Assembly (NCBI GenBank): GCA_965231145.1
Contig: OZ246420.1
Span: 900,001-932,000, forward strand
DNA length: 32,000 bases
Origin: Candidatus Saccharimonadota bacterium
GTDB taxonomy: Bacteria; Patescibacteriota; Gracilibacteria; Absconditabacterales; Absconditicoccaceae
Direction of reading: 5' to 3'
The translations under genes and the position numbers were made by a program. Positions 1 to 32,000 of the stretch are shown piece after piece. The notes beneath the pieces are model-generated. The model did no database searches, was not told the origin of the DNA, and saw only the letters and a program-made list of their open reading frames with translations. The number at the start of each line of letters is the position of its first letter. Position 1 is the first letter of the stretch.

Positions 1-282
1 GATCAAAGCCATCTCATGAAGCAACTCATGCGTCTGTGCAAATTGTATTATCTCTTTGTCGGCAGTTCATCCACACGCCTTATAAGCAAGATACACAAGA
101 TACGGTCTTACACGCTTGCCACCACTAAACGTAAAATCATCAATATATGCAACAATTTGTTGCATCCTTGGAGAGGAAGCTATTTTCTGCGATTGTTTTA
201 CTTTCGCAGCGATGTATTTTCTGAGTTCTTTATCAAATATTTGCTTAAATGCTTTGATGTCCATCAGTTTGGGCTTTTTCAA
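1..282 (-). CDS. trans-polyprenyl diphosphate synthase, N-terminal part (3' end runs off the left edge)
   Basis: Track ORF 67..282 (...GGKRVRPYLVYLAYKACG) continues through in-frame TGA at 67-69 into TADKEIIQFAQTHELLHEMALI. That is the helix preceding the first DDxxD motif of isoprenyl diphosphate synthases. Start is TTG 282 or ATG 264. Confidence 0.75.
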
Positions 283-331
283 GCGCTAAATGCGATACAG
301 TATACCGATCGACCTTGCGAATGCAAATCAG

Positions 332-359
332 AAAAACTCAGCTAATATGCTGAGTTTTT
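332..359 (-). terminator. rho-independent-type hairpin after the InsA-like gene
   Basis: AAAAACTCAGC-TAATAT-GCTGAGTTTTT is a perfect 11-bp dyad with flanking A/T runs. It overlaps the TAA stop at 358-360. Confidence 0.6.
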
Positions 360-657
360 AATGTGAACACTGAGTACAATTTCATTTATGTTTCTTCGCC
401 CATGCAATGATCGTAGAAGTCGAAAGAGAAAATTTTTCTGCGACGCTGCGAGCATCATTACCTGTATGACAGTACTCATCAACGACTTGCTGACGAAATC
501 ATTCGTCATAGGTTCCTCTTGCTCCGCCTACCGTAAAATGTTTGCGGCAATCGCCGCAACGAAATCTCTGTCCGCCCGTGGGAAGCTGTCCGTTTTTTTG
601 AATGCGACCGCTGTGACAGAATAAACAATCTATAAGACGTTTGAGATGTTTTTTCAT
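358..657 (-). CDS. IS1-type InsA-like zinc-ribbon + HTH protein (orphan, ~99 aa)
   Basis: MKKHLKRLIDCLFCHSGRIQKNGQLPTGGQRFRCGDCRKHFTV...YDE[TGA=G]FRQQVVDEYCHTGNDARSVAEKFSLSTSTIIAWAKKHK. The CxxC...QR(F/Y)xCxxCxK pattern matches IS1 InsA / Zn_Tnp_IS1 and is followed by an HTH-like segment. Two in-frame TGA; stop TAA 358-360. Confidence 0.6.
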
Positions 658-679
658 GATGATATCTAATACAAAGAAC

Positions 680-703
680 GCCCCGAGTGTACACACCCGA
701 GGC
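680..703 (-). terminator. hairpin downstream of the His-rich membrane protein gene
   Basis: Minus-strand RNA GCCUCGGGUG-UGUA-CACUCGGGGC forms a 10-bp stem. It needs two G:U pairs that only work on the minus strand, and is followed by a U-containing tract. Confidence 0.45.
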
Positions 704-710
704 AAAAAGT

Positions 711-1256
711 CTATCTTTTTTTCAAAGAAACCGTGAATTTATTTTTAAGTCCCAATCTACGGAGCACGGCATCTCTCCACCAAAATGAAATAGTCACGAA
801 AACAATAATAGCACCAAGCGCGACAAATTCTACTGTCTCACTCCCCGCTTCTTCGTGCTCATGAAGTTCAAAGCCAATAAGACGTGGAACGATATGCAAC
901 AAGACAATATGTGCGATAAGTATCAACGTAGAAATCGAAAAGAATTTTCCTACTGACTGCGCTGTGTTATCATTATGCTTTGACCATCTATGGATCCACC
1001 ACCAATTAATGATTGCAAGAAGAATAACACCTAACAAATGGATACCTTGTAATACTCCCTCATAACCAATCATATCTTGCCAGCTCATATGATTTACCGC
1101 CGCGATGATGATAAGTTCAATAGCAAGAACGAGAATATTATAGATTATCGTTGCGATGCAGATCGGATGCTCCTTGAGATGCTTCCGGGAAAGATCGTGA
1201 TGATGATTGTGTGCGTGCATAGAGAGTATTATTTTAAGATGAATAATAAAGAACAT
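711..1256 (-). CDS. hypothetical multi-pass membrane protein with His-rich N-terminus
   Basis: Uninterrupted 181-aa ORF with stop TAG 711-713. It has about 4 hydrophobic helices, an MHAHNHHHD N-terminus (alternative start 1220) and an ELHEHEE loop. No family recognised. Confidence 0.6.
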   Translation of the reverse strand: MFFIIHLKIILSMHAHNHHHDLSRKHLKEHPICIATIIYNILVLAIELIIIAAVNHMSWQDMIGYEGVLQGIHLLGVILLAIINWWWIHRWSKHNDNTAQSVGKFFSISTLILIAHIVLLHIVPRLIGFELHEHEEAGSETVEFVALGAIIVFVTISFWWRDAVLRRLGLKNKFTVSLKKR

Positions 1257-1302
1257 AGAGCTAGCCCCGGTAAACCAGGGCTAGTCAATAAAGCATTTTG
1301 AC

Positions 1303-1782: not shown

Positions 1783-2004
1783 TTCTCACTCCTGCCGGAG
1801 GGGCGTTACTTTTTAGCATATCCCTAAAAAGCAACCAAAAAGGTCTAGTCGGATATAGCACTACGAGCCTGTGAGTTATTCAAACATTGAATACGACGTC
1901 TTTCGCTGTCGCGCGCATCACAGCGACTCCAGCTCAATACTACCATTCTTATTATATTTCACGATCGCAAAGAGAAGACGTGGGGTATATCCGACGAATA
2001 AGAA
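1783..2004 (+). repeat. copy A of a ~220-nt dispersed element (candidate structured RNA / cis-leader); inverted partner at 25727-25945
   Basis: Reverse complement of 25727-25945 aligns with about 11 mismatches over ~185 nt outside a ~28-nt variable core. Hairpins are conserved (1809-1831, 1903-1926). Long-range pairing links 1848-1857 to 1986-1995. Confidence 0.8.
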
Positions 2005-2030: not shown

Positions 2031-3221
2031 ATGCATATAAGCCAACCCTTAGCAGCCCTCCTCCGCCCACAAAAACTCGATGAGCTAGTCGGACAAAAAC
2101 AGATCATCGAGCAAATGAGATCATATATTACTTCAGGGAAGATCCCATCAATGGTATTTCGATGACCTCCGGGCTCAGGAAAGACAACACTTGCAATAGT
2201 GCTCAGTCATGAACTCGAAGCAGACTTTGTGCATCTGTCTTGAGTCAGCAGCAAAAAAAGTGATCTCAGTGAGATCATCCATCAGGCACAGATGAACAAA
2301 TGATACAACAAAAGAACTATCGTTTTCTTAGACGAAATTCATCGTCGAAATAAAGCGCAGCAAGATGCGCTACTTCCTTATGTAGAAGACTGAACTATTA
2401 TATTAATAGGAGCAACGACAGAAAATCCTAGCTTTACTATTAACAATGCATTGCTCTCGCGCACAAAGGTAATAGTTTTCGATAAACATACCGAAGACGA
2501 TATCGTAAAATTCATCGAAAGTCACATAAGTGACATACAAAGACTCTATCCATGAATTGAGATTCCTATCGAAACCGTAGAGCTTATCTCAAGGCTCGCG
2601 AACGGTGATCTGAGAAATGCGTTAAATCTTACAGAATGATGACTCATGATCCAATGAACGTGAATACTTGATCCGCAAACTATTCTTATCGCCTATGGAA
2701 AACCAGTCTACTACGATCGCAATGGCGAAGAACATTATAATATCATTTCCGCTGTACACAAATCGCTTCGCGATAGCGACGCAGATGCAGCATGTTACCG
2801 AGTGCAAAGGATGCTGCAGTGATGAGAAGATCCACTCTACATCTGCCGTCGCCTCGTCCGCTTTGCGAGTGAAGATATCGGGCCCGCAGACAACAACGCC
2901 CTCCTTCTTGCCAACACCGTCTACGACGTCTGTGCAAAGCTTTGAATGCCTGAGTGCGACAATGCATTAATGCAATTAACACTCTATCTCGCGAAAGCAA
3001 AAAAGAATAACATCTGTTATGTTATCTCACAGGAAACGAAAAAAGATGTCATGCAGTTCGGCAATCTCCCTGTGCCTTTGCACATCCGTAATGCGCCATC
3101 AAAATTAATGAAAAACTTAGGCTACGGAAAATGATACAAGTATGCTCATGATTATGAAGATGCTAAAGTCGATCAGGAACATTTTCCTGATGAACTAAGA
3201 GGCAGAAAATATGCGGAATAA
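2031..3221 (+). CDS. rarA: recombination factor / replication-associated AAA+ ATPase RarA (MgsA)
   Basis: [20 protein letters not shown]..., Walker A [TGA]PPGSGKTT (TGA 2163-2165), [24 protein letters not shown][TGA][14 protein letters not shown] (TGA 2391-2393), and C-terminal ...[17 protein letters not shown][TGA]YKYAHDY. Thirteen in-frame TGA; stop TAA 3219-3221. Confidence 0.93.
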
Positions 3222-3341: not shown

Positions 3342-4403
3342 TTAATTTGTAATTATATTAAACACCCTTGCCCAGTGCTTCTTCCACACTTCTCCAAATG
3401 ACTCTTCTAAAAACCTCCCTCTTCCTCACTGCCCGACGACTTCGCCGCTTGAGTTTACGAGAAATGCAAATGAGCCATCGAGTCATTCTCCTTTCTTCTC
3501 TCGTCAAAGTATTCCTCACTGTTTCACCGCACCAATAAGGATATTTCCACTTCCTGCGCGGCTATAACTCGTTCGTCACTGTGCCCATTTTTCTACTTCC
3601 TGTACGTTCGGCTTATCTTTGAATGTTTTACGAATGAGACTATTATTTCAAATATAACGCCACGCTAAATTAGCAGCATCTGTATCAAATAGCGAATAGT
3701 AAGATTCGTAATATCCGACTCCCGCCTGTACAACCCCACGCCAAAGAAATGCCTGCAATGGCTCGGGAGAGGTCATAATACGGCTATAGGAAATTCATTG
3801 TTGCTGCAAAGAGTCTTCCATCTTTTGAGTAGCTACATGCTTTGCAAAAAATGTGAACAACGGATAGATAACGATCCATACAGCTCCTATAAGATATCAA
3901 ATTTTCCTTAGGGGCTTCTTTTTGAGGAAAATATATATAAACCAAAGTGCGATTAGCGGAAGCGTATAGAAAAAATCTATGACGAAAATATTGTCAAAAG
4001 AGTACGTAAGTGACGAAAATGGCAACAGATATCTTCCCCCGTATGCGGTCATGGCATCTACTAAAAGATGACCTAAGAGAATACTCAGGTATGAACCGAG
4101 AGCCCAACGCCATCGTGGACGATGATAACGATCTGTCTTTGCGCAGACAAAACCCACAAGCAATGCCACAACGATATTGAAAAATACCGAATGACTGAGA
4201 CCTCTATGAAACAGAAATTCACTCATATAGTCTTTATGCGGAATATATCTCCCAATAAAAATATCAAGATCGGGAATGTTGGTAATAAGCCCTCATAAGA
4301 TAAGTGCTTTGTTACGCTGCCATCGAGATGCCTGCACAGGCGTTTCTCCAACTACCTTTTCCAGGATCCATCCTCCAATAACTCACTGTGTAATATTATC
4401 CAT
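3342..4403 (-). CDS. YdjM/DUF457-family membrane-bound metal-dependent hydrolase (long form, 353 aa)
   Basis: MDNITQ[G]VIGGWILEK...LI TNIPDLDIF...FHRGLSHSVFF are the family N-terminal motifs. Track ORF 3897..4226 is only the middle part. Reading through about 10 TGA extends the gene to TAA 3342-3344, with no TAA/TAG in between (checked codon by codon). Confidence 0.8.
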
Positions 4404-5194: not shown

Positions 5195-6250
5195 TTACAT
5201 ATATTTTTTCTTACAAGGTACACACACATATATTCATGGGCTCTGTTCTATAAGCATTCATTTCATCTCTAATATACTCATATGTACCAATAATTCTTCA
5301 GATGTGTAGCCGGTTTTCTCTCCGAGCAACATCATAGACGCCTCATCATACTCTTTCAGAACAGCAACTATTTTTTTCTCTTCATCATTCAAATCCTCAC
5401 GGATACTGATACAAGATACTGATACCGTTTTTCCTGTATCTGTATCAGTCATCTGTATCTGAGATTTACGGGGATAATGTTTCTCAAGAAATGAGCGAAG
5501 ATCAGCAAGAGGTGCAATACGTCCATTTACAATATATGTATTCGTTCCTCTACTACTCTCGAGAAAGATACTATTCATAGGAGCGACGACAGGCTTTTGC
5601 AAATCATATCATATATCTGCGGTAATTAGTGATCATGACTTTTCTTTTGCTTCTGGCAAAAAAATCGTATCCGAAAGAGATGCGATGATACGATTGCGCT
5701 GAGGAAATGATCGGTTTGTTGGACGGAAAGAATGTTTGTATTCTGACACTATCAATCATCCTCCCTGTACTATTTTTTCCATCAATGTTCTTTTTTCCCC
5801 ACGAAGAAACACTTTGAATCCTCATCAAAGTACTGCAATGGTAGAGATACCATACTTTAGGGAAAGTTCATGACACAACGTATCTACTCCAGGCGCCATA
5901 CCAGAGACCGTCACGATATCAAAATATTGTAGTTGCTCGAAGAGCGCTTCAAGGACTTGCTCCGCATAGGGACTCATGAGCCTAGGGCCGACAATAGCTA
6001 AAGTCGGCTTTTCAAGGACTGACAAGCTGCCTTGGTAGTAGAGCACATACGGCGCCTGCGGCGCCGTTTGTAACCTCCAGTGATAGTCAGGATCACCTTG
6101 GATAGTGGCATCTATGCTATTTTCAGCCATTCGTTGCTGGATAACATCAACGTCGACCGAAGGCAGCTCGGGAGAAGATCTTAGCTGCGCCTGGGTGATA
6201 TCATCGACAATTGAATAATAATATGCATGATAGGCTGTTTTTTTGTCCAT
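5195..6250 (-). CDS. dprA: DNA-processing protein DprA (Smf)
   Basis: Three track ORFs (5825..6250, 5604..5828, 5258..5602) fuse in one frame: ...VSGMAPGVDTLCHELSLKYGISTIAVL[TGA][TGA]GF...VQGG[TGA]LIVSEY...FPQRNRIIASLSDTIFLPEAKEKS[TGA]SLITADI... The tandem TGA is at 5822-5827. The first real stop is TAA 5195-5197. Confidence 0.92.
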
Positions 6251-6428: not shown

Positions 6429-7790
6429 ATGCATAAGAATTTAGCAGATTTGCATCAGCACATGAAACAGCACTTGAAAACAAACGCTCATCTACGGAAG
6501 AAAACCGCAATCATCGCTTTTCTTCTCCTACAAGCTACATCTTTTCTAATCAACGGAAATGGATTTTCATGGTCATATCCTCTCAAGGAAGTTTCTAAAG
6601 ACTCTGCATGCAGAAAAAAAGTGTGGAGCGATCTAAGCGAGGATTGTAAGCAGCCACTTCCTATTATCAAAGGAGCGAAATATGAAAACTATAAGGATAA
6701 TCCCGCATATACTTCTATCTACACTACCATGTGGGGAGCTCCCTACGATAATGGTTGGGCTATAGGTCAAGGAGCTCACGAAGGAGTAGATATTGTTTCT
6801 TCAGAAGGAACTCCTGTGTATTCTGTAGAAGATGGAACTGTCATAAGAGCAAGAGCCCAGGCAGGTTATGGGAATGTCGTCATGATAAAGCATATTCTTC
6901 CTGATAACACACCAGTGTTTTCTGTCTATGGACACTTGCATACTATTACCATCCCAGAAGGAGCAAAAGTTAAAGAGGGAGAGATGATCGGAACAGTAGG
7001 AAATGTAGGATTCTCTTTCGGAAATCACCTCCTGTGGAATATTCATATCTCACCAACAAATACATATGCGTTCTGGGGATGTCCAGAATATGGAAATGGA
7101 ACAACATTTAACGTCATAGCAAATATTGTAAATAACGGTCTTTGCAGAAGTTATCTTCTTGAAAGAACCGCAGATCCTATCGCATGGATCGAGTCACAAT
7201 GAGGGACAATTAGTCTCAATAGTACTACTCCATCACCGATCTCTACAGTTGCGACGACCAATAGAAAAAGAATGCCACTCGTAGCACTTGCACCAACTTT
7301 TGATAAACCTGTAGTAAATAATGTGACTTCAACAACCATCCAGAAATCTCTCGCAACGCGTATAGTCACAACCAATGAAATTCCTAAAAATAGTATAGCG
7401 CTCGCAACTCCTACCACAACGAAAACGACAACAGAAAAAGGAGCAACAGTAGAACTTGCAAATACAAGCACACTCGGAGAATCATTTCTTGAAAAATATA
7501 CGATCTCTCTTCTCCCATCATTCTCAAACAATCTCCAGGTATGACAGACAACCAGCATGGTTATCCAGGTTACAGACAAAAGTGGCAAGCCATTTGTTGG
7601 AAAACTTCCGAAAGATATAACACTTATACCATCTGAGAACATCATCTCACTTTCTCCTCAGGTAATCAGACTTACCAATAGTGATGGTAAAGCTATCGTT
7701 CTCATAAGTGCTGATCAAGCAGGGACAACATCACTTATAGCTTCATACAACATGAAGACTCTCTCTAAAATGAATATTACTGTTAAATAA
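6429..7790 (+). CDS. M23 (LytM-type) peptidoglycan metallo-endopeptidase with Thr-rich linker and C-terminal Ig-like domain
   Basis: HEGVDIVSSEGTPVYSVEDGTVIRA...GYGNVVMIKH...VYGHL...GNVGFSFGNHLLWNIHI. ORFs 6429..7202, 7272..7544 and 7557..7790 share one frame and are joined by TGA at 7200 and 7542. Stop TAA 7788-7790. An alternative start is ATG 6462 (MKQHLK... signal-like). Confidence 0.85.
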
Positions 7791-10233: not shown

Positions 10234-11316
10234 TTACCTAAGATATTTACTTATGTTGTCATTGTGTCATTGTATATTTTCTGCGTAGCGGATGACGCCA
10301 TTTGCGTCATGGATGTAAAAGAAGTAATTTGTTTTATTAAATTCGAGTACTGCACGGATCGTATCTACAGAAGAATTTGCAATAGGCGTCGGAGGAAGAC
10401 CTCTGTGTACTCTAGTATTGTAGACGTTATCAGTATCTTCTATATTTTGATTGATAAACGATGGTGTGCAATTTTCATAGGGCTTGTGTAGGCCATAACA
10501 GAGCGTAATATCTGCGCCTAAAAGAGTTCCCTGCTGCAAACGATTGAAAAATATTCATGCGACGGTTGGTTTGTTTTGCGTATTTCTTTCTTCTTTCTCG
10601 ATCACAGATGCAAGACGAAGGATATTCCACAAATCCATCGTATAACTCATGGCAATTCCTTTTGCCTGAAGAAGAGAAGGAAATGAGGTGATCGCTGTTG
10701 CATAAGGCTGATATATCTTTTTATCAAACGCTTGAAGTTGTAGCTTCACAAGCTGCGTTAGTGGCTCCTTGCTTGGATCAATGAAGTACGTATCAGGATA
10801 GAGCCATCATTCAAGTGATGGAAATCCATGTGTTTTATATGCTTCCGCAAGATAGCGATATGTAGCTCAGAGATTATTTATCAGATCTTTTGATGAAACG
10901 TATGCTACGTATTCACCTGGCTGTATAAATCATTTGCTCGCAAGCGATGCATCTATGTCATAAATAGATCGTCACTCTAAGACAGTGAAGCGGACATATT
11001 GGGATGTGGGTCATACTTGTATCACATCAAGAAAAGTTTTCGGTGTATACGAACCGCTAAACTGATATGTTCCAAGTTGAATATTTGCAAGATCAACTTC
11101 ATGGGTCTTTATGTACGTCTTTACTTTAAACCTTTCGAGACTATTAAGTTGAGCAAGAAATACATTGAGCGTATCTCACTTTTTGACAATGACTGATTTC
11201 TGGAGCTTAAAGCGCTGGCTCGACACAATGCTTATCCATATTACTGCGACAATAATGATAAGTACTATCCAACGACCAAGACGAGTTTTTTTTCTTCCAA
11301 ATGAATGATGCGACAT
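10234..11316 (-). CDS. mltG: endolytic murein transglycosylase MltG (YceG-like)
   Basis: N-terminal TM segment (RWIVLIIIVAVIWISIV), then ...FTVLE[G]RSIYDIDASLASK..., ASVIEKEE..., YNTRVHRGLPPTPIANSSVDTIRAVLEFNKTNYFFYIHDANGVIRYAE. Track ORFs 10267..10539 and 10555..10749 share one frame. Stop TAA 10234-10236. Confidence 0.85.
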
Positions 11317-12015: not shown

Positions 12016-12042
12016 AAAAGAAAGCGAATGCTTTCTTTTTTT
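12016..12042. terminator. bidirectional terminator shared by convergent genes
   Basis: AGAAAGC-GAAT-GCTTTCT, with an A-run upstream and a T-run downstream. Confidence 0.7.
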
Positions 12043-12985
12043 AATCACCTGCTCAGCCACCTCATGACATACCTCCTCCTCCGCTAAATGAACTTCCACC
12101 TCAACCAAAACTACCTCCACTACTCCATCCGCCTCAAAATCATGTTCAACGACTGACCACTATATTTCCAGCTATCACATTATAGAAAATAACTCATATC
12201 CACGATGCAAGCCACGGTCCTATCAGATACGCTCTCCATGGCAATAATATAAGAAACAACTGAAATACAAAGACCATGATAAGTGGCAATGATTTGTATA
12301 GCGTTTTATTTTTATTTTTTCAGATTATTACTCACTTAATTTTCTCCGCCGCCTTTCTTTTTTTCTGCATGATTCCCATCCATATATCATATCCGATAAC
12401 CACAATAAATCAGATAAGATTGATAATAATCAACTCTGGAGAGATGACATCCTCTGAAAAAGCAAGGGATTGTGCTTCATCAGAAGCTATTGCTTCTTCT
12501 ACTCTTTGATAAAACACTCTTACGGCTCATGCATAGTCTCATGCATTTACCAATGGGCGAATATCCTGCTCAATAATTTTACTTGCCAACACGTCGGGCA
12601 TCTGCCCTTCCAGTCCATATCAGACCATAATACGAATCTTCTTTTCATCTGTTGCGATCACCAGTAGCAATCAATCATTATTTTTCTTACTTCCAATACC
12701 ATTGTCATTGAATGCCTTCAGAGAAATATCAAAAAGTTCTTTCCCCTGACGATCCGGAATCAAAATAGCCACAAACTGGCGTCATGAGTTCTGATCATAC
12801 TGATATGCATGATCGTTGAACTGCTGCAGTGTCGTAGCGTCCAACACACCGGCAAAATCTGTTACATATTGATTAAGCTTCGGCAGATTCATCACATCAA
12901 GATTTTGCGTTTGGGCAAAAGTGACACTTCATAGACAGAGTGTCATCAATGCAATCATGTTTCCTACGATCTTTTTTATATTCAT
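12041..12985 (-). CDS. TPM-domain (YgcG-like) membrane protein with Gly-rich C-terminal tail
   Basis: Not in the ORF track (split by ~18 TGA). YVTDFAGVLDATTLQQFN...[G]RQFVAILIPD...NNDG[=TGA]LLLVIATDEKKIRIMV[G]YGLEGQMPDVLASKII..., two TM helices, and tail SR[G]T[G]F[G]GGWSSGGSFG[G]GGSSFSGGGGMS[G]GG[G]AGD. This is the usual partner of lemA. Confidence 0.85.
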
Positions 12986-15394: not shown

Positions 15395-15434
15395 AGAGGG
15401 AACAATAAAACTAAACCTTCTTTATGCAATATAT

Positions 15435-15460
15435 AAAACGTAAAACCTTTTGGTCTTACG
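15435..15460 (-). terminator. terminator after rpmE
   Basis: Minus-strand CGUAAGACC-AAAA-GGUUUUACG (with G:U pairs) followed by UUUU. Confidence 0.45.
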
Positions 15461-15477: not shown

Positions 15478-15714
15478 TTACTTCTTTGTTGCTTTCACTG
15501 CGTCGATCTTCTTCATCTTCTCAGCAAACTTCTCCATACGACCCTTAGAAACCTGTTTTACGACAAGTCACTTATTGTACGCTGGATGACAAGCTGGACA
15601 ACTATCTTGTTTCAAAGGTCCTTTTACTGTTGTAGCGATAGTAAACTCGTTTCCACAGATACAAGTTACCTGAACCGCAGTATCGTACTGAGGATGAATT
15701 CCTTTTTTTGGCAT
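15478..15714 (-). CDS. rpmE: 50S ribosomal protein L31
   Basis: Not in the ORF track. MPKKGIHPQYDTAVQVTCICGNEFTIATTVKGPLKQDSCPACHPAYNK[TGA]LVVKQVSKGRMEKFAEKMKK... shows the L31 signature (GIHP.Y, C.CG, CHP.Y). Confidence 0.88.
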
Positions 15715-15791: not shown

Positions 15792-16304
15792 TTAGTTTTT
15801 TTTGTGTCATCTTTTGAATGTATGACCTTCAACTTCGTGATCATAGATTTCAGTCCCAGCGAACCAGAGTGAAAGCTCTTTTTCAGCTTCTTCAGGATTT
15901 GCTGATGCATGTATGATGTTTACCATCCACGCATTATTCGAATCGCTGTAACCATAACTTATGTGCGAATAATCTCCTCTAATCGTTCCTGGAAGCGCTG
16001 ATTTTGGTTCGGTAGCTCCTGTCATCTTTCTGACAAGCGCGATAGCTTCGATACCTTCCCATACCATAGCGATAACTGGACCAGACATCATAAAGTCACG
16101 ATTTACATTGAAGATTTCCTTGTTATAACGTGTAATCATCGTACCGATTTCTTCATAGTGCTTGTAGTAGAAATCTTCATTTGGCCAAAGCATTTTCATA
16201 CCTACCAAGTGGAGCCCTACTCTTTCAAAACGGCTGATAACTTCACCAACGATACCTCTTTTAATAGCATCCGGCTTCAAGACAACAAGGGTTTTCTGCA
16301 GCAT
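15792..16304 (-). CDS. ndk: nucleoside-diphosphate kinase
   Basis: TLVVLKPDAIKRGIVGEVISRFERVGLHLVGMKM...GPVIAMVWEG...ALVRKMTGATEP..ALPGTIRGDY...NIIHASA. The track stop at 15807 is TGA; the real stop is TAA 15792-15794. Confidence 0.9.
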
Positions 16305-19569: not shown

Positions 19570-20382
19570 ATGGTCATGTCAAACAAAAAGTGATTTACCC
19601 TGCTTGAACTCGTCATCGCGATAGGGATTATCGGTGCATGATTGATCGCTGTTTTCGTTGTCCTCAATAGTTGATTTTCTACGATGGCACAAGCAAGAGG
19701 TCAGATCATCGCTATCAATCTTGCAAGAGAAGGGGCAGAAACTGTATTTAATCTCAGAGATACCAATCTTCGCAAACGATCAGGCAAAAAAGACCTCTGT
19801 TGGCTCAATGCAAAAAGTCTCTTTGTAACAAATCAGGAGGCGTGTGAAGATGAAAAACGAATTGGTTACTATGAAGGATGAACGGGATTTTCTTACATAC
19901 CTATGATGGCACAATACGGACAAAGTATGGTACCGATCATGAATACCTTATTTCCTGGAGAACTTGATATCTTTGATGGGCTTAACCTTGCAGACAGATC
20001 GTTTGAAGTTGCACTTTCTGCCAGCGGAGAGTTCCTGCCAGCACCCTTATTTAGTGGAAGTATCTATGATAGCGCATGTCTGAGTATCGATACAGATGGC
20101 AATAATTCCATAGGGGTAGACTGTGAATGAATCACCTATTCGCCTGCAGGAAGATTTTATAGAACGATAAATCGTGTTGGACTATTCGACAAAAGCGCTA
20201 CCGTGACTGGAGGAAATAATATGCAATGTGAAAATGGAGCTGCAACTGATACCGTATGATCAGGACCATGTGGATGACCAGAAGCAAAAGAATTTCGTTT
20301 CTGTTCTGAGGTACAGTATATCGTCGACAATGCAAAAAGAAGGGTAACAATTTGTTCTGTTATGAGCAACTTCAAAGAGTAA
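19570..20382 (+). CDS. type IV pilin / pseudopilin-like protein (270 aa)
   Basis: MVMSNKK[TGA=G]FTLLELVIAIGIIGA[G]LIAVFVVLNS is a class III signal peptide with the G|FTLLE cleavage/methylation motif. ORFs 19684..19881 and 19903..20130 are in the same frame. The C-terminal part contains several Cys. Stop TAA 20380-20382. Confidence 0.85.
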
Positions 20383-20512: not shown

Positions 20513-20650
20513 ATGCATTTTTTGTAAAAGAACGGAAGGATCATTACTCTTATCGTAAAGCATCTTATTTAGTTAAAAGTTTTAAAGTTCGTAAAGTTAA
20601 AACCTCATTGTTTCTACTTTATGAACCTTCTACTTTATAAACTGTACTAT

Positions 20651-22294
20651 ATGGAAAGCGTAAGTATCTGGAATCTTATATGATGACTTGGAGTCTTCCT
20701 CTTTGGAATGATAGTTTTTGAACAAACTATCGAAGATATGGGGAAAGCAAAACTCAAAAGAATTCTTGGTAAAAATACTAATACTCGCCTAAAGAGTATC
20801 ATTACTGGAATCATACAAACATGTATTTTTCAAAGTAGCACCATCGTCACGATGATGACTTTATGATTTGTAGGTGCTGGAGTGATCGGGCTTGGAAATG
20901 CGCTCGGTGTTGTAATTGGGGCAAATGTTTGAACAACTCTCACGCCATGGATCATTTCACTTCTTGGATTTAAATTGAATATAGAAGCGCTTGCGCTTCC
21001 AATCATCGGTATCGGAGCGCTTAGCGTGATGATTTTCTCTGCCTATCCAAAAGTCGTGAGCATCGGTAAATTTTTAGTATGATTTGGATTTTTGTTTTTA
21101 GGTCTTTGATATATGAAAGAAAGCGTAGAGCTACTCGCCCACTCTGTATCACTTGCTGAGTACACACATCTACCTATCTGGTGATTTGTATTGATTGGAC
21201 TGGTGATGACGACGATAATGCAAACGAGTACCGGAGCAACAATTATTACGCTGACGGCGCTCAATGCGGGGATTATCTCTGTGGATATGGCGCTTGGCGT
21301 CGTCATTGGTGCGAATATGGGATCGGCAATCTCCACCACTATCGTTGGATTCCTTTCTAGTACAAAGACTCAGGTAGTCAAAAAGCAAGTGGCGTTTAGT
21401 CATTTCCTTTTCAATATCACAACAACTATTATCGTGACACTCTGCTATGTTCCGCTGAGAAATCTGATGTTCCTTATCCTCGGAGACAACCCTGATCCAA
21501 CCATAATATTGGCTCTTTTCCATACCACGTTCAATGTAATCTTAGCGCTATTATGGGCTCCATGGCTGAAAAAAATGATCCCACTCCTCCATCGTCTTTT
21601 CCCTCGCCCCACAAGCACACTTCATCTCGCGGTAGAACGCGTCAGCACAACACTTCCCGAGGAAATTCTTCCTGCACTGCAGTGCGATACTCAACTTCTT
21701 GTAGAAAAAGTGATTGCCTACAACCGTGCTTCACTCATGCTCGATCATAGTGAGTACAGACATCGCATAGAAAAATATAGTGAGCTTAAACAGATAGAAG
21801 AGAAACTTCTTGAAAGCGTAGTGATCTATACAACGTATCAATATACTCCTGAGCAAGCGACGTCACTCCATCTTCTTCATGATGCGATCATCGACAACAT
21901 CAGTAGTAGTAAATACATCAAAGACGTATCGCATCATCTCGACAACCTGAAGGACAATAGTCTCGAGGAGGTTATGTCAGAAAGCTATAGTTTTTTCCAA
22001 AGGCTCGTAAGACAGACAACAGATATGATCCACACATGGGAGCATATCTCTCCTCCGCTCACAGCAGAAGAACTACAAGATAACGTCTCTAGTCTAAGCG
22101 CATCACTCCATAGCGATAACGATACATTCATCGGTTCTCTCTCCTCTACCGTAACGCATCAGCACAATGACGAGCTGAACATTGCAGAGATCATCAAGTC
22201 GCATCACTATATTATCCTTTCATGTGAGGCACTTCTCCAAAGTTATCTGAAGCTCTATCGCAGCCAGAGAAGCAACGACAAAAACGTGAGTTAA
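20651..22294 (+). CDS. Na/Pi cotransporter family protein with PhoU-like C-terminal domain
   Basis: ...GVFLFGMIVFEQTIEDMG..., twin motifs GANV[TGA=G]TTLTPW and GANMGSAISTT, and a helical C-terminal half. The N-terminal 180 codons are missing from track ORF 21191..22294 because of 7 TGA. Confidence 0.85.
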
Positions 22295-22959: not shown

Positions 22960-22992
22960 AACTATCTGCAATTATGTGCGGATAGTTTTTTT
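22960..22992 (+). terminator. terminator of the 22625 gene, abutting the mutL stop
   Basis: AACTATC-N14-GATAGTT followed by TTTTT. Confidence 0.5.
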
Positions 22993-24742
22993 ATCTGTCA
23001 AAAAGTCCGTCGACATCTCCTCTGTTCATCTTGATGAAAAATGGTCTTCCGTGTTGGCAGACGAACATGCCGTCGATATGCGAAAATCCATCTTGTACAA
23101 GACGCTGCATTTCTGGAAGTGACAGTTTTTCTCCTGCTTTAATAGATGCTTTACATGCCTTCATAGCATAAAGCTCATCGAGGATAATGTCAAATGAAAT
23201 GGGATCTTTATGTAATGTAATGTTGAGCAATGTTTCAAGATCGATCTGATAGTCGACAAATACTTTTGGCACTGCATGCACGATAAGCTTATTTTCTCCG
23301 AACAGAGAAAGATCGAATCCAAGGCTTTGGAGCTGCTCTATCTTTTCATCGAGCAACATGGTCTTGGGAAATTCTATGGTCACTGGTTGTAGCAAAGTTT
23401 CTGGCGTGAGTCCTTCCTCATGTGCTTTCTTTTTCATTTTCTCAAATGCAATACGCTCTGCGAGTGCGTGTTGATCGATCATATATAAGCCATCATCTGC
23501 TTGTAAAACGATGTACATATTTCGTAGCTGACCAACTACCGTGTAGTGTGTATCAGCAGTCGAAATATTGAATGCACTATCAGATTCTCCAGATGATGAT
23601 GCAACGCTCACATGTTCCTCAAAGGTGAATGGAAGCGGATCTATGCGTTGCCCCTGAGCAGCGCGAAAGGGATTGTGAAAGAAATTATTATCAATATGTG
23701 AAACTGGAGTCGATGCAATTTTATCGAGTGTGTCACGAGGAATATCAATAATCTTTTCATCACCGAGAGATTTTTTTACCGCAAAATGCACTGCCTGATA
23801 GATACTTCCGGGATCCGCAAAACGAACCTCGAGCTTTCTTGGATGTACGTTTACATCAACAAGTTCAGGGTCTATGTCTACAAAAAGAAGGGCCAAGGGA
23901 TAAGTGCCATGGGCTATTTGTCTTTCGTATGCTGTGAGTAATGCCTTCTTCAGTACTCTGTCCTGCACCGGACGAGCATTGACGAAAATACGGATGTTTT
24001 CCGGAGAGCCAAACGTCAGCGATGAATCAGAAAGCACGCCATACATACGGATCGATTTGTCATCGAAATCGAGAATACGCACATTACTTTCCCGGTCTTT
24101 CTTGAAAATATCTCCAAAACGAGTGAGCAAATCGTCTGCAGCAGCGAGATCGAAAATAATTTTTCCGTCTTTTTTTAAGACCCAACGCTTATCCCAGTGA
24201 ATAAGCGCAAAATTGAGGAACAAGTCATAACAATAGAAGTACTCTGTCTGTGACGACTTGAGAAATTTTTGTCTTACCGGCGTGTTGAAAAAAAGATCTT
24301 CAACAATGACTGTTGTTCAGTGCCCACCTGCAAAGCTCATAGGTCTTACATGGATTTCGCTTCCAATCTTCGTCAGCGTCTGACCAACAGTACTATCAAT
24401 ACGCTTTGTTTGGATCGTCATCTTACTTACTTCGCTGATCGACGCCATAGCCTCACCGCGGAAACCATAGGAGCTGATAGAATACAAATCATCTTCTGAG
24501 GCGATCTTACTCGTCGCATATCTTTCCAAAACCAAGTCGATATCTTCCGTATCTATACCCTCTCCATCGTCTTCTATCTTAATCATTTTCTTTCATCCAT
24601 CATGCAGATCGACGATGATCTCATTGGCACCCGCATCAAGCGAGTTTTCCACGAGCTCCTTCATGACCGACGCCGGGCGCTCGACAATTTCTCACGCTTT
24701 CAATTTGTTGATGAGAAATTCTGGTAGTCTTTGAATTGGCAT
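22991..24742 (-). CDS. mutL: DNA mismatch repair protein MutL
   Basis: [16 protein letters not shown][TGA=G][22 protein letters not shown]... (TGA 24692-24694), ...[12 protein letters not shown]..., [TGA=G][20 protein letters not shown] (TGA 24317-24319), and a C-terminal dimerisation domain ...[11 protein letters not shown]. All pieces are in one frame. Stop TAA 22991-22993. Confidence 0.93.
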
Positions 24743-24841: not shown

Positions 24842-25690
24842 TTACGATAAAGAGAGTATCCGTGAGCTTATCATCATCATGATCCACGCCGCTAAGATCA
24901 TACCCGGGAAAAATGGAATCATGCGTTTACCTCATTCATGTGTGATAGGTATGACGACGAGTAGTAACAATGACGCTATGCATGCTACGATAACGTAATA
25001 TCGAAAATACTGTACTGTCATCATCCAAGAACCCATATCCATGAGACCACTACTTTGTACTACTTTCCAAAGCACAGCGCCAACAATAGGCGCGAGCATA
25101 ACATCTCACTGACCGATGCCTTCGGCATCCTGCTTCCATCTGAAGCGAACATAGAGTTTAGCGAGCAGATAAATGAAAACAAAACCTATAGTGAAGATGA
25201 CTACTCGCTGAGCAGCAGTAAGAAAACTAGTTCCATCATTACCATAGATCAACAGACCTGCTGCTCAGAGCAGCGCCATCCATCGAGCTACAGGATGAAG
25301 ATACATCGTTCGGATGTCATAGATCATCAGCAAATAGAGCGACCGATGCACAAAGAGCGACAAGATAAGCAAAGTAATATCTCCTCCACCATAGAGCGTT
25401 CGCCAATATGTTATTCCCAGAAACACCAACGCTGAACCAAGTTCAAGAAGCGGATACCAGTGTGAGACTGTCGCTTTACAATAGCGACACTTCCCTCTTG
25501 TCGAAAGCCACGAAAGCAATGGAAAAAGATCATATCGCGTCAGCGTATGCTTGCAATGCGGACACTGAGAACGTCAGACCAACACTGAACGAACTTTTTT
25601 TCGTGTTACTTCGGTTCCTAGTCTATGCAAAATAACTGATCAAAATGATCAGAAGAGCAAGCCTATGATAAATACAGCGATATATAACAT
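24842..25690 (-). CDS. pilD: prepilin peptidase (A24 family)
   Basis: MLYIAVFIIGLLF[G]SF[G]SVILHRL...CPHCKHTLTRYDLFPLLSWLSTRGKCRYCKATVSHWYPLLELG...LLMIYDIRTMYL...GIGQ[G]DVMLAPIVG... The track shows only an 84-aa piece. Stop TAA 24842-24844. Confidence 0.88.
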
Positions 25691-26484: not shown

Positions 26485-28146
26485 ATGAATTATAACGTGC
26501 TGTATGAAAGTAGTGACGAATCGGTCATCGAAAGGCTGATGAAAATCAGAAAGATCGAAGACAATCTTGAGGATTTTATGAATCCCACTTTTGCGCGTTA
26601 TCGAGGAGATCAGGAAAAGCTCCATGACTTTGAAAAAGGCATGACAAGGATACTTTCAGCCATAGAGAACAATGAAAAAATCATGGTGTTTGGAGACTAC
26701 GATGTCGACGGAATATCTGCGAGCTATGTCGTCTATGTTTTTTTTCAAAAATTTTTGTGATACAAAAATATTTCTATCCAGCTCCCCTCTCGCCTGGAAG
26801 ATGGCTATGGGATGAAAACATATCATCTCGATCAGATGAAAGAAAAGTGAGTCGATTTGATCATCACTGTAGACAATGGGATTACTGCTGTTGCTGAGGC
26901 TGCCTATGCAAAAGAGATCGGGATCGATATGGTGATTACCGATCATCATCAGCCACTCGCAACCATTCCCGAAGCTGTTGCAGTTATCAATCCACAGATC
27001 TCTCCTAACTATGATTTCAAAGAAATATGCGGAGCTACTGTTGCTTTTAAATTGATTGCAGGGCTCTCAACGAGACTTATCAAAGATGCAAAAAAGAGAC
27101 AAGAAATTTTCAATTTCTTTATGCCTATTGTCGGTATAGCAACAGTTGCAGACTGTATGCCTTTGGTCAATGAAAATCGTCTCCTCGTAAAAACAGCTCT
27201 TGACCTCATGAATAAGAGAAAGTGAATCCCTGAGGCGATTAGTAATTTCTTAGACTATCTTAATATTAAATGACCTATCGATACATTTCATATTGGTTTC
27301 CAGATCGCCCCAAGGCTCAATGCATGAGGCAGGATGATGACGCCATATGACAGTTTGTATGTGTTGCTTCATACTGGCGATAAGCAGCTTCGTTTTCTTG
27401 AAAATCTTGACTCACTCAATACAGAGCGTAGAAAGATACAAGAGAACGCCTATAAGTATGCAGTAGCAAACATGGACAACGAACAAATGATCATCTTTAC
27501 CGCAAGCGATGAGTTTCATGAGGGCGTCATCGGTATCGTGGCAGGAAAACTCACTGAAAAATTTCGCAAACCATCGATTGTCTTATCGATAGACAAAACA
27601 AAATGACATGCGGTCGCCTCACTTCGCGGACCAGAATATTTTTCAGTTATCGATATGCTCTACGACGCAGCTCCTCTGCTTGAACGCTATGGAGGTCACA
27701 AGCAAGCATGAGGACTCACAGTGAAAATAGAAAATCTCGAAGAGTTACAAAAAAGACTGTATGAGTATACAGCGCGTGTTATCCAGGAACATATGCTGCA
27801 AAAGACTATTAGTATCGATACACAGCTTCATCATCATGAGATGACGAGAGAAACAGTAGAAGCTATCAGCTGTCTCGCACCTTTTGGCCAAGGCAATCAA
27901 GAACCGATATTTCTCATAGAGGAAATGACTATTACTCATGCTGAAAAAGTAGGAAAAACAGGAGCGTGACATCTTAAACTTCATGTAAAAAACAAGGAAA
28001 ATCTTTCGATGCATGCACTTTTCCGATGAGATGGAGAAAAGCTTAAGGATATCGAAAAATGAAGCGGGACGAGCCTTATTTGAACACTGAAGAAGGATGA
28101 TTTCAATGGTGGAGTGTTTATAGAGGGGAAACTGCTATTATCGTAA
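26485..28146 (+). CDS. recJ: single-stranded-DNA-specific exonuclease RecJ
   Basis: DHH-family motifs VFGDYDVDGISA, ITVDNGI, VITDHHQP, GIATVADCMPLV, plus the DHHA1 region ...HEGVIGIVAGKL...YGGHKQA[G]GLT. Four track ORFs are in one frame, joined by ~12 TGA. Stop TAA 28144-28146. Confidence 0.92.
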
Positions 28147-28218: not shown

Positions 28219-28593
28219 ATGACTAATTTTGAAAAATTGGGAGTATGGCACAAATCCATAGACCTCTCTGCCAGTATGCATGAACTATGTGATACACAGC
28301 CTTCACTCAAAAGAAATTATGGACTAAAAGATCAAATTCAAAGAGCAAGCGTATCTATTCCTAGCAATATTGCTGAATGATCATGAAGACAGACGGATAA
28401 AGAATTTATAAGATTTCTCTATATCGCAAGAGGAAGTTGTTGTGAATTATTTACACAGATTACTATTCTTTTACGCATTAAATATATTGATATTTTCACA
28501 CATTCTTCGATCACTCATCAAATAACAGAAATACAGAAAATGATTAATGGGCTCATATCAGCTCTATCCAAACAACTAGCGACTAAAAACTAG
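28219..28593 (+). CDS. four-helix-bundle protein (23S rRNA intervening-sequence protein / Avd family)
   Basis: Absent from the ORF track. MTNFEKLGVWHKSIDLSASMHELC...LKDQIQRASVSIPSNIAE[TGA]S[TGA]RQTDKEFIRFLYIARGSCCELFTQI... shows the family signature (W....l....y, IpsNIAEG, F..iA.GS..El). Stop TAG 28591-28593. Confidence 0.85.
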
Positions 28594-28638
28594 CAGCTAG
28601 CGACTTTTTTGATATTATCCATTCTCGATAAATTTGGC

Positions 28639-28666
28639 TTGACATCCCTTTTTAGGGGGATAGAAT
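28639..28666 (+). promoter_or_regulatory. sigma70-like promoter of the MAK operon
   Basis: TTGACA, 16-nt spacer, TAGAAT, located 25 nt upstream of ATG 28692. Confidence 0.5.
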
Positions 28667-28691
28667 AGAACCCTAACCAAAAGACTAAAAA

Positions 28692-29162: not shown

Positions 29163-29180
29163 CCGTAAAAAGAATACGCT

Positions 29181-29369
29181 ATGGCAAAGAAACAACCACG
29201 ACCACAGCAAAAGGATGGACAAAACCAGCATCCTACAAATAACAATGTTACTACCAGTTACCCATACCCCATACCTCCGAATGCGGCCCGCATTATAGGC
29301 TCTTCTACAGCGTATGGTCTGGGGGCATCACTGGGGGGCTCTGAAAAGCCAGTCCAATCAAAACATTAA
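29181..29369 (+). CDS. hypothetical small protein (62 aa)
   Basis: Starts MAKKQPRPQQK and has a Gly/Ser-rich C-terminus. Tightly spaced between its neighbours on the same strand. Confidence 0.35.
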   Translation: MAKKQPRPQQKDGQNQHPTNNNVTTSYPYPIPPNAARIIGSSTAYGLGASLGGSEKPVQSKH

Positions 29370-29413
29370 GCTAATTCACCACATTTCCACCAAATCAACT
29401 CAAACAAACTCAA

Positions 29414-30088
29414 ATGGCAAAAAAGGCTAACCCCCAGACAAAGTCCCCAAAGACAGGAGCTACAGCAAAGATGAACGCTCCAAAAACTACAAAAGCCGTA
29501 TCTATAAAACCGGCGAAAAACGTTAAAGCTACTCCTTCAGTAGCAAAAAAGATGTCGCAGCCGTCCAAAGCGGTTGAGGTAAAAGCTACTAAAAAAGTAA
29601 AAAAGAAAACGTCGAATAGGCATATTATTTTGACTGTAAAAGTGCTTCCTGCTGATACATTACAAGTCCCAATACTTGATAATGAACCCGTAACGATAGA
29701 GACAACAAAGTTTATTCGCTACAGCGATGAAGAACTCAAAGAGTTCAAACAGCATATTCTTAACTTATTAAGTGACGCCAGGAAATTACTCACAGAACTC
29801 AATGGTTATGTAAAAGATGATGACATGCGAGATCAGCGAGAAGATAATACAAGACTCGCAAGCAGGCAAGTCCAATACATAGCCCACCTCGAAAAAGCTC
29901 TCATAAGAATTGAGAATAAAACATACGGTGTTTGCTCTCAAACGGGACAGCTTATTCCTAAGGCTCGTCTGATGGCAGTCCCTCATGCGACTCTCTCTAT
30001 AGAGGCTAAAAACAAGCAGCCAGAAAAGAGACGAACATACTATTCACACCCCTCGAACAACAATGTAAAAACACTTGTGTCCATTTAA
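29414..30088 (+). CDS. DksA/TraR-family protein with Lys/Ala/Pro-rich histone-H1-like N-terminal tail and degenerate zinc finger
   Basis: The C-terminus AHLEKALIRIENKTYGVCSQTGQLIPKARLMAVPHATLSIEAK lines up with E. coli DksA [43 protein letters not shown]. The four Zn cysteines are C, T, S, A here. The N-terminal ~70 aa are AKK/PKT repeats. Confidence 0.75.
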   Translation: MAKKANPQTKSPKTGATAKMNAPKTTKAVSIKPAKNVKATPSVAKKMSQPSKAVEVKATKKVKKKTSNRHIILTVKVLPADTLQVPILDNEPVTIETTKFIRYSDEELKEFKQHILNLLSDARKLLTELNGYVKDDDMRDQREDNTRLASRQVQYIAHLEKALIRIENKTYGVCSQTGQLIPKARLMAVPHATLSIEAKNKQPEKRRTYYSHPSNNNVKTLVSI

Positions 30089-30109
30089 TTCTCTTGCATA
30101 ACACACTTA

Positions 30110-30138
30110 AAAGCCTCCGTATCTGCGGAGGCTTTTTT
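30110..30138 (+). terminator. rho-independent terminator of the MAK operon
   Basis: AGCCTCCG-TATCTG-CGGAGGCT followed by TTTTT. Confidence 0.8.
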
Positions 30139-30267
30139 CTTATGGAGATAATGAATAAGTCTAAAAAATCATGAAATAAGATTTTTTAAGACGCATGAAT
30201 ATTTCTTCAAGGAAATACTGGGTCAGAATAGCAGATGTCATAAAGAAATACACTTATCAGTATTTCC

Positions 30268-32000
30268 TTACGATCAAATATTTCAGATGCTGTCTTTCAG
30301 TGATTCACGAAGTTCATCGAGACCATCGAGTCATGGATATTTGTCGAGAAGCCATAAGGCTGCTGATTGTACTTTCTCGAGGAATTCCATGTTACCAATC
30401 ACTGAAAGCGGGATGTCTGTTTCACCACTCTGGCGAACTCACAAAATCTCTCACGTCCCGCGTAACTGCATATCCATCTCTGCAAGCTTAAATCCATCGT
30501 GCGTTTTTTCCAAAGCACGAAGTCTCTTGTATGCATCTCACGACTTATACTTCGTCTCGAGGAAACAATACGACTGCAGATCACTTCTTCCCACACGTCC
30601 ACGAAGCTGATGTAACTGTGCAAGTCCAAATCTTTCTGAATTTTTAATAATCATCACGGTTGCTTCCGGTACATCGATACCTACTTCGACGACGGTTGTC
30701 GAGACGAGGAAAACAAGTTTTCCTTCTTTAAATTGTTTCATGACAAGATTTTTTTCTGCAGGCTTCATCTTTCCGTGAAGGATACCGATCTTTCACTTGA
30801 GCTCAGGATAGAGATCGACGACATTGTGAAACTCCTGTGTCGCAGACGCAAGCTCCATTTTCTCACTCTCTTCAATGAGCGGTGCAATGAGAAAGATTCT
30901 TTGTCACTGAGAAATTCTGGTAAGAATCCACTGTTTCAATTTTTTAAATTCTGACTCAGAAATAATTTTCGTATAGATCGGTTTACGACCCTTAGGCATC
31001 TCATCAATGACCGACACATCGAACTCACCGAAAAATGCGAGCGCCATGGAACGTGGAATTGGCGTCGCAGTCATTTGTAAAATATGTGGTGAGCCAAACT
31101 GTTTAAAGAAACCACGCTGACGCACACCAAATTTATGCTGCTCGTCGATGACAGAAAAAAGTAGCTTATGAAAGCCAATGCCCTCCTGCAGCAGCGCATG
31201 TGTTCCGACAACGATGTCGATAAGTCCCTGCTGAAGCTTTTGTTTGAGTTCGTCCTTTTGTGCTTTGCTGACTGAGCCAGTGATAAGTTCTACACGAACT
31301 CAAAGAGGGAGTAAGAGCGCAGCAAGTGAGCGATAGTGTTGCTGCGCGAGCACTTCGAGCGGCGCGAGAAATGCTGACTGACCGCCCATTTCCTTCATCA
31401 CATAATACGCGGCTATCGCCGCGACAATAGTCTTTCCGCTTCCCACATCTCCCTGGAGCAAACGAAGCATTGGACGGTCTTTATGAATATCATCGATGAC
31501 TTGTTTCAGTGCTTTCTTCTGCGCATTCGTCAGTGTAAACGGCAACTTTTCAATAATATCTGACACCGTCTGCCACTGCGCATCAGAGACACCAAATTGT
31601 TTTTCTCACTGATATGCAGCCTTATTGAGCAACGATGAAAGCTGTATTTGCAAAAGCTTATCGAAGAACAAACGATGCTGCGCTTTTTCTTGAAGTTCTC
31701 TTGAATCAGGATAATGCAGATTTCTTATCATCGTTGGAATATCTATGAGCTCATACATCTCCAGCAATTCTTTCGGTAAATGTTCGTGAAAAAACTCAGG
31801 GATGTGTCATATATTTTCCCACATCTTCTTCGCAAACCATACGGGCGAAATCCCGCTTAGTTCTGGGTATATTGGGTATAATCTTCCGACGTTAAATAAT
31901 TTGTCGCTAGTCTCCTCTAGCTGCTGATTGCTAGTCAATGATTCCTCCGAATTTGATTCTAAATTCTGATCTTTGATTTCTGAATTATCAATTGATTCCG
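30268..32000 (-). CDS. recG: ATP-dependent DNA helicase RecG (5' end beyond the right edge)
   Basis: ...[13 protein letters not shown]..., [13 protein letters not shown], Walker [60 protein letters not shown], ...LRGTGEILGVRQSGE. Track ORFs 31300.., 30904.. and 30538.. are in one frame. The real stop is TAA 30268-30270. The frame stays open to position 32000. Confidence 0.9.

Follow-up and report, generated by a model that had tools for sequence, protein, structure and literature searches.

Comparative evidence for UGA as a glycine codon and CGA and CGG as tryptophan codons in a 32-kb stretch of Absconditabacteria-type DNA

Genetic code of the window

The 32-kb stretch analyzed here (contig OZ246420.1, positions 900,001 to 932,000; guanine-cytosine (GC) content 39.8%), called the window in the following, raises the question of the genetic code in which its genes are written. 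A first-pass annotation had assigned the whole window to NCBI translation table 25, in which TGA stands for Gly and not for a stop. Our comparisons agree with this meaning of TGA and point to two further changes. We consider the window to be, with a probability of about 0.87, chromosomal DNA of an uncultured Absconditabacteria-type bacterium belonging to the Patescibacteria/candidate phyla radiation (CPR; class JAEDAM01 in GTDB) in which UGA is read as Gly and both CGA and CGG are read as Trp. Only UAA and UAG would then remain as stops, and Arg would be encoded only by CGU, CGC, AGA, and AGG. For UGA and CGA, these meanings are indicated by conservation in standard-code homologues and by synonymous codon exchange between relatives. 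For CGG, they are indicated by codon exchange at fewer sites, which makes this codon the least certain of the three.

TGA as a sense codon

We examined 32 genes (8,950 codons), 23 of which contain in-frame TGA, 126 codons in total. The genes end with TAA in 26 cases and with TAG in three. When the translations were scanned against Pfam with TGA masked as X, domains were matched over the full model length, across the in-frame TGA, in RarA, YdjM, CAP, DprA, M23, MltG/YceG, TPM, the Na/Pi cotransporter, MutL, PilD (A24 prepilin peptidase), RecJ, the four-helix protein of the 23S-rRNA-IVP family, and RecG. Full-length matches were also obtained for LemA, YidC, and the DksA-type zinc finger. The gene identities given in the first-pass annotation are correct (Table 1).

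The effect of the stop-codon set was measured on greedy, non-overlapping stop-to-stop open reading frames (ORFs) of at least 80 amino acids (aa). With the stops of table 11, the ORFs cover 0.71 of the window and have a mean length of 153 aa. Reading TGA as sense lengthens them to 276 aa and raises the coverage to 0.91, as had been expected from the fragmented ORF track. The controls, in which TAG or TAA was read as sense, gave a coverage of 0.78 each and mean lengths of 153 and 166 aa, respectively. Nine standard-code loci from Patescibacteria and Firmicutes (including Dojkabacteria, Saccharibacteria, Moraniibacteriota, and one Companilactobacillus) showed zero gain with TGA as sense, and five recoded relatives found by their RarA showed a gain like that of the window. 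Three greedy ORFs, 1-345 (+), 15415-16328 (+), and 28866-29426 (−), were rejected as antisense artefacts; the real features at these places are the 5' end of the polyprenyl synthase gene, rpmE and ndk, and the DksA-like region.

With the stops of table 11, no start-to-stop piece is longer than 48 aa in rpmE, 37 aa in the TPM gene, and 53 aa in the IVP gene. An ORF track with a threshold of 60 aa would, therefore, lose all three, which agrees with their absence from the track that was available for the first-pass annotation. The false stops proposed for dprA, ndk, mltG, and the M23 peptidase gene were reproduced under table 11, with M23 ending at aa 257. Eight TGA positions had been cited as lying in well-known motifs. 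All of them are in frame (as TCA on the minus strand), and the peptide contexts are exactly as quoted: FR-x-PPGSGKT and ED-x-T in RarA, AVL-xx-G in DprA, KK-x-FTLLE in the pilin, GANV-x-TT in the Na/Pi transporter, KA-x-EIVERP and GH-x-TTV in MutL, and NIAE-x in the IVP protein, where x is the TGA codon. The repeated TGA in the Gly-rich tail of the TPM protein is likewise present (Table 1).

TGA at glycine positions

When each GTDB species was represented by one genome, a scan for RarA yielded 80 loci. In-frame TGA in rarA occurs only in the five best of these, and the other 75 are without it. We compared the 13 TGA columns of the window's RarA with the 75 standard-code proteins. Four columns are G 75/75, among them the Gly of the E-D-G-T motif (TGA 2391-2393, +). 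One further column is G 50/75, one is G 38/A 33, one is A 70/G 5, and six are variable. Trp was found in 0 of the 975 cells of these columns.

Other proteins gave the same picture. At TGA columns, Gly is found in 103, 94, and 95 of 113 distant homologues of YdjM and in 93, 59, and 96 of 96 distant homologues of PilD. Standard-code homologues of MutL, MltG, and RecG were taken from the flanks of the RarA loci. Among the TGA columns, they have G 3/3 at all three of MutL, G 6/6 at three of MltG (six homologues), and G 11/11 at two of RecG (eleven homologues). The single TGA of the polyprenyl synthase gene falls on a column that is G 5/5 in standard-code homologues. Solved structures were compared for RarA, RecG, DprA, RecJ, and MltG: Gly is present at three TGA columns of MltG (PDB 2r1f and 4iiw), at three of RecG (3/3 structures), and at two of DprA (PDB 3uqz).

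We also calculated Codetta-style log-odds over seven gene families with standard-code homologues. The standard meaning was regained for 57 of 61 codons; the exceptions are two trivial confusions among I, L, and V, and the codons TGA and CGA. TGA scores +30.9 for Gly, and the next best residue scores −45.4 (48 columns). The tabulation of residues in TGA columns that had been proposed with the first-pass annotation thus favors Gly and not Trp.

The use of TGA varies among the genes. It makes up 126 of the 625 Gly codons (20%), and its share is uneven (chi-square p = 6e-6), being 50% in rarA, 40% in mltG, and 39% in the TPM gene, 6% in the M23 gene, 2% in the gene of a 556-aa surface protein, and 0% in yidC, lemA, and a number of hypothetical genes. 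Expression level or translational accuracy may underlie these differences.

Codon exchange at TGA sites

Relatives were available at several distances. Two loci, L081 and L086, are from contig JAUIDC010000001.1 (936 kb) of GCA_030429145.1 and together give ~44 kb of synteny with the window; L082, L084, and L085 are Logan contigs. The syntenic relatives are about 60-88% identical, and the closest public relative, with a PilD that is 95% identical, is found on Logan contigs of 1-2 kb. The window's own contig did not turn up: neither the YidC protein, the gene of which is free of TGA, nor a 45-mer gave an exact hit, the latter in metagenome_contigs and viral_contigs. Codon pairs were counted at 13,031 well-aligned positions between the window and ten relative loci. 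Opposite window TGA (203 pairs), the relatives have GGN in 111 pairs, TGA in 62, and TGG in none. In the reverse direction, TGA of the relatives stands opposite GGN of the window in 78 pairs. Counted per site, GGN occurs in at least one relative at 59 of 94 TGA sites.

Individual genes illustrate both exchange and retention. The functionally essential Gly at position -1 of the pilin cleavage site (19591-19593) is specified by TGA not only in the window but also in the three syntenic relatives (L081, L084, and L085); at this critical residue, the reassigned codon is stably kept. The remaining TGA sites of the pilin gene pair with GGN. The tandem TGA pair of dprA is GGG-TGA in L086, where the TGA of the polyprenyl synthase gene is GGT and five aligned TGA sites of the TPM gene are GGN at four and TGA at one. 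The TGA of rpmE faces GGA and GGT, and that of ndk faces GGT and GGA. L084 has GGN or TGA at 7/7 sites of the Na/Pi cotransporter gene, and the TGA at the NIAE-G site of the IVP protein is TGA in relative L002 as well.

Under the standard code, one would have to explain in-frame TGA by pseudogenes, by errors in sequencing or assembly, by selenocysteine, or by programmed read-through. Nothing beyond the TGA codons themselves speaks for this. Their spread over 23 of 32 genes, their concentration at Gly columns, and the Pfam matches at full model length speak against it, as does the fact that assemblies made independently from other samples have them conserved or swapped with GGN. No Rfam family, SECIS included, reached its gathering score over the window. 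We give this explanation practically no credence. UGA as Trp, as in code 4 of the Mycoplasma/Spiroplasma type, is scarcely credible either. TGA is clearly a sense codon, and the public protein collection does translate the relatives with table 4. However, no TGA column is Trp in the standard-code homologues and many are invariant Gly, TGA-TGG pairs are absent among 203 pairs as compared with 111 TGA-GGN pairs, and 0 of the 13 RarA TGA codons fall on the conserved Trp columns of this protein, for which CGA is used.

CGA and CGG at tryptophan positions

The window contains 34 CGA and ten CGG codons (38 and 11 per 10,000 codons, respectively), which together would account for 44 of 142 Trp codons (31%). 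Two reassigned codons are adjacent at 2160..2165 (+), where CGA-TGA stands for the Trp-Gly of the RarA Walker A motif (W-G-PPGSGKT); the two columns are W 74/75 and G 75/75 in the standard-code proteins. All five recoded relatives have CGA opposite 2160-2162, followed by GGN or TGA. CGA at 2346..2348 (+) falls on a column with W 54/F 21, and CGA at 2799..2801 (+) on a column with W 71/Y 4, where the relatives have CGG, TGG, CGG, CGA, and CGG. At all three columns, the codons used by the five recoded relatives are CGA, CGG, or TGG. The 17 CGT, CGC, AGA, and AGG codons of rarA are placed differently: nine are on R 75/75 columns and none is on a Trp column.

In YdjM, the CGA columns are F, W, or Y in the 113 distant homologues, and L086 has TGG at three of the four sites. 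The CGA and CGG columns of PilD are aromatic, hydrophobic, small (A/G/S), or gapped in the 96 distant homologues, except for aa127, which is discussed below. In both proteins, close relatives are represented by database entries that alternate between R and W at CGA/CGG columns and at window TGG columns. CGA 28024 of recJ aligns with W in PDB 8y30 and faces TGG, TGG, and CGG in the relatives. The CGA column of MltG is F 6/6 in standard-code homologues. Codon exchange was also seen at the CGA 5711 site of dprA (TGG in L086), at both CGA sites of the pilin gene (paired with TGG), and at the CGG site of mutL (TGG, TGG, CGA, and CGG in the relatives). Sites in weakly conserved stretches of the DksA-like protein are uninformative. 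The Codetta-style log-odds for CGA are +20.1 for W, +0.8 for F, and −16.5 for R (12 columns). For CGG, the profile is undecided; as it has three informative columns only, the meaning of this codon is taken from the exchange data alone.

Window CGA pairs with CGA (39), TGG (20), and CGG (6) and never with CGT, CGC, AGA, or AGG. Window CGG, with partners at five sites, pairs with TGG (4), CGG (3), and CGA (2), and window TGG pairs with TGG (72), CGA (22), and CGG (7). CGG of the relatives stands opposite TGG (7), CGA (6), and CGG (3) of the window and opposite no Arg codon. The CGT, CGC, AGA, and AGG codons of the window (514 pairs) are exchanged chiefly among one another and with Lys codons, and with CGA/CGG once. 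Counted per site, TGG is found in a relative at 16 of 25 CGA sites and another Arg codon at 0 of 25.

These data bear on plain table 25, according to which only UGA is changed, CGA and CGG stay Arg, and the lineage has Arg where others have Trp. Three things fit table 25: the full support for UGA as Gly, the basic or polar residues that stand opposite the CGA at pilD aa127, and the small number of columns informative for CGG. However, CGA and CGG as Arg codons should swap with CGT, CGC, AGA, and AGG, and this was seen in 0 of 80 pairs, while 24 are pairs with TGG. True Arg codons do interchange, e.g., CGT with CGC in 47 of 169 pairs. In addition, CGA columns of RarA (W 74/75 and 71/75), YdjM, PilD, and RecJ are Trp or aromatic in standard-code homologues, and the log-odds for CGA are opposite in sign for Arg and Trp. 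We consider plain table 25 quite improbable. The claim that the whole window is in code 25 hence stands for TGA as Gly, but CGA, and CGG on fewer data, behave as Trp, which is outside this table. Table 25 would misread 44 of the 142 Trp positions, including the Walker A Trp of RarA, the CGA of which comes directly before one of the TGA codons that had been cited.

Points that weigh against the assignment

Several observations count against reading UGA as Gly and CGA and CGG as Trp. The evidence is comparative throughout. ARAGORN found no tRNA genes in the window and none of the relevant tRNAs in eleven related loci, which yielded two tRNA-Leu genes only; release-factor genes are likewise absent from the 32 kb. 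For CGG, the five sites with partners and the three profile columns are few. A GC content of 0.40 and 38 CGA per 10,000 codons lie at the top of, or beyond, the ranges published for clades with CGA/CGG reassignment, where GC is 0.26-0.38 and CGA is below 37 per 10,000 codons (PMC8629427). Finally, one CGA site, and only this one, does not fit Trp: at pilD aa127 (25310-25312, −), the relatives have CGA, CAG, AAA, and AAG, and the distant homologues have D (34), K (29), and R (19). Either Trp has truly been substituted at this variable, polar site, or the site hints at a reading as Arg that is residual or ambiguous.

The aa127 site would suit an ambiguous or transitional decoding, in which CGA and/or CGG are mostly Trp and partly Arg and some sites are still Arg. 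The source paper of the Codetta predictions cautions that ambiguous translation remains possible absent experiments. Only one of 25 CGA sites behaves in this way, however, and one substitution by W at a polar column that varies suffices to explain it, so that we regard ambiguous decoding as very unlikely. An atypical or unusually advanced stage of the Arg-to-Trp reassignment, with residual reading as Arg at few CGA sites such as pilD aa127, is suggested by the 40% GC and by the share of CGA/CGG, which is about one third of the Trp codons; we consider this unlikely, too, but worth stating.

Comparison with known codes and placement of the organism

UGA→Gly, CGA→Trp, and CGG→Trp were predicted for Absconditabacteria by Codetta (Shulgina & Eddy 2021, eLife, PMC8629427), and CGG→Trp is variable in Gracilibacteria (PMC8629427). 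The triple reassignment was restated for Absconditabacterales in a 2026 survey of tRNAs (PMC13092985). The window resembles the Absconditabacterales code in UGA as Gly and CGA as Trp, in a behavior of CGG that points to Trp at the few sites available, in the use of CGU, CGC, and AGR for Arg, and in CGA being commoner than CGG. It differs in degree only, with a GC content of 0.40, CGA (38) and CGG (11) at the high end, and 31% of the Trp codons being reassigned ones.

On the basis of published work on the clade, UGA would be read by a tRNA-Gly(UCA), with release factor 2 (RF2) lost, a tRNA(UCG) and a tRNA(CCG) bearing Trp identity elements would serve CGA and CGG, and CGU and CGC would be read by tRNA-Arg(GCG). 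CPR bacteria lack tRNA-Arg(ACG) and read CGU and CGC by tRNA-Arg(GCG), and the tRNA(UCG) and tRNA(CCG) of Absconditabacteria both carry Trp identity features (PMC8629427). CGA and CGG were, therefore, probably captured together.

NCBI table 25 agrees with the window in UGA as Gly, in the stops TAA and TAG, and in the clade, but it keeps CGA and CGG as Arg and would misread 44 codons in the 32 genes. It is reportedly the code of Candidate Division SR1 and Gracilibacteria and is said to go back to Campbell 2013 and Rinke 2013. NCBI table 4 (Mycoplasmatales/Entomoplasmatales and insect endosymbionts) shares UGA as a sense codon and a small, reduced genome. Its UGA is Trp, whereas in the window UGA is Gly and Trp is widened through CGA/CGG. 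In Anaerococcus and RFN20 Bacilli, for which CGG→Trp was predicted (Codetta 2021), an Arg codon of the CGN box was taken by Trp, as in the window. Such a capture is one mutation in the anticodon away from CCA. In those lineages it concerns CGG only and comes without tRNA(UCG), whereas in the window it concerns CGA above all, and UGA has a new meaning, too.

The first-pass annotation had placed the organism in Absconditabacteria or Gracilibacteria. UGA as Gly is known only in Absconditabacteria (SR1) and Gracilibacteria/BD1-5, which correspond to GTDB JAEDAM01 (PMC8629427). In our scan, in-frame TGA in rarA was confined to this group and to entries labeled otherwise: the best RarA loci (58-62% identity) are Candidatus Absconditabacteria STD2_163 and four metagenome-assembled genomes (MAGs) auto-labelled Peribacteria. 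The RarA of the Absconditabacteria MAG has the same pattern of CGA/CGG at Trp positions as the window. The placement in JAEDAM01 is thus probable and may be narrowed because the code matches the Absconditabacterales type and not plain table 25; judged from the sequence, the order is most likely Absconditabacterales.

Gene content of the window

The genes on which the argument is built are compiled in Table 1.

Table 1 Genes of the window with their coordinates, supporting matches, and reassigned codons
Gene or product	Position	Strand	Evidence and codons
Polyprenyl synthase, 5' part, cut by window start	1..264	-	Translation; 1 TGA at 67-69
rarA (MgsA/RarA AAA+ ATPase)	2031..3221	+	396 aa; Pfam MgsA_C/AAA; PDB 3pvs E=8e-89; 13 TGA, 3 CGA
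ydjM-family membrane hydrolase	3342..4403	-	Pfam YdjM; 10 TGA, 4 CGA
dprA	5195..6250	-	Pfam DNA_processg_A; 7 TGA incl. tandem 5822-5827; CGA 5711-5713, 6131-6133
M23 peptidase	6429..7790	+	Pfam Peptidase_M23; 2 TGA (7200, 7542), 1 CGG (6495)
mltG (YceG)	10234..11316	-	Pfam YceG; 8 TGA, 1 CGA (10969)
TPM-domain protein	12041..12985	-	Pfam TPM_phosphatase; 16 TGA, 7 in Gly-rich C-terminal tail (12053-12148)
rpmE (ribosomal protein L31)	15481..15714	-	Translation; 1 TGA at 15568; L081 orthologue is Ribosomal_L31
ndk	15795..16304	-	Translation; 1 TGA at 15807, four codons ahead of the true stop
Type IV pilin-like protein	19570..20382	+	Translation; 7 TGA, 2 CGA; TGA 19591-19593 is the -1 Gly of the cleavage site before FTLLE
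Na/Pi cotransporter	20621..22294	+	Pfam Na_Pi_cotrans; 7 TGA; 20930 is the Gly of GANVGTT
mutL	22991..24742	-	Pfam MutL domains; TGA 24692, 24593, 24317; CGA 23522; CGG 24092
pilD (A24 prepilin peptidase)	24842..25690	-	Pfam A24_N_bact; 6 TGA, 7 CGA, 2 CGG
recJ	26485..28146	+	Pfam DHH/DHHA1/RecJ_OB; 11 TGA, 2 CGA (26602, 28024)
23S-rRNA-IVP-family four-helix-bundle protein	28219..28593	+	Pfam 23S_rRNA_IVP, 114 bits; 2 TGA (28378, 28384)
recG, N-terminus past window end	30268..31998	-	PDB 1gm5 E=5e-121; 11 TGA

Some further features were noticed. Next to the polyprenyl synthase gene, a small InsA-like protein (358-657, −; two TGA) combines a Zn-ribbon with a helix-turn-helix, as in the N-terminal domain of IS1 InsA. 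An orthologue is found at the same place, beside the polyprenyl synthase gene, in GCA_030429145.1 (L086); thus, the gene appears to be a conserved resident and not an active insertion sequence. The 556-aa protein with the low TGA share (7924-9594, −) is secreted or anchored and has a weak match to filamin/Ig-like repeats. Both this protein and its neighbor of 162 aa (9645-10133, −) are conserved with L001, L002, and L086 (35-59% identity), and the two may form a clade-specific surface structure. Between the IVP and DksA-like genes (28600-29420), there is a Lys-rich ORF on the plus strand (28689-29159), and the relatives have small uncharacterised ORFs in this region.

A sequence of 216 nt occurs twice in inverted orientation, at 1789-2004 (+) and 25727-25943 (−), with 91-96% identity, and each copy stops ~25 nt upstream of a start codon (the ATG of rarA and of pilD, respectively). 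In contig L082, which is 95% related, part of it likewise lies upstream of pilD; more distant relatives do not have it. The repeat region gave no Rfam match at E ≤ 1, and a structured RNA is unconvincing in view of folding z values of −1.9 and −1.5 against shuffles. The repeat may act as a leader or a promoter module, or it may be a small repeat element.

Consequences

The phenomenon itself has been described before; with the window, the group gains a new member. It adds independent support from codon exchange to a reassignment that has so far rested on one computational screen, and it offers clean target peptides for confirmation by proteomics; the consequence is practical and not conceptual. 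If the window did represent an atypical stage, it would be a natural test case against the simple account of "codon capture" at low GC, as well as a candidate case of ambiguous decoding among bacteria.

The combination of UGA as Gly with CGA and CGG as Trp is in no NCBI table. Table 11 breaks up two thirds of the window's genes, table 4 puts Trp at about 20% of the Gly positions, and table 25 puts Arg at 31% of the Trp positions, including invariant Trp of RarA and RecJ. The public proteins P0121, P0124, P0127, and P0005 (from L082, L084, L081, and L086, respectively) are exact translations by table 4, not by table 25 or 11, which accounts for database proteins with W at Gly columns and R at Trp columns. 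Searches and clustering for the clade inherit these table-4 errors. Since no NCBI table fits, a custom table is needed; otherwise, protein sequences, scores of hidden Markov models, structure predictions, and phylogenies of this clade are wrong in a systematic way.

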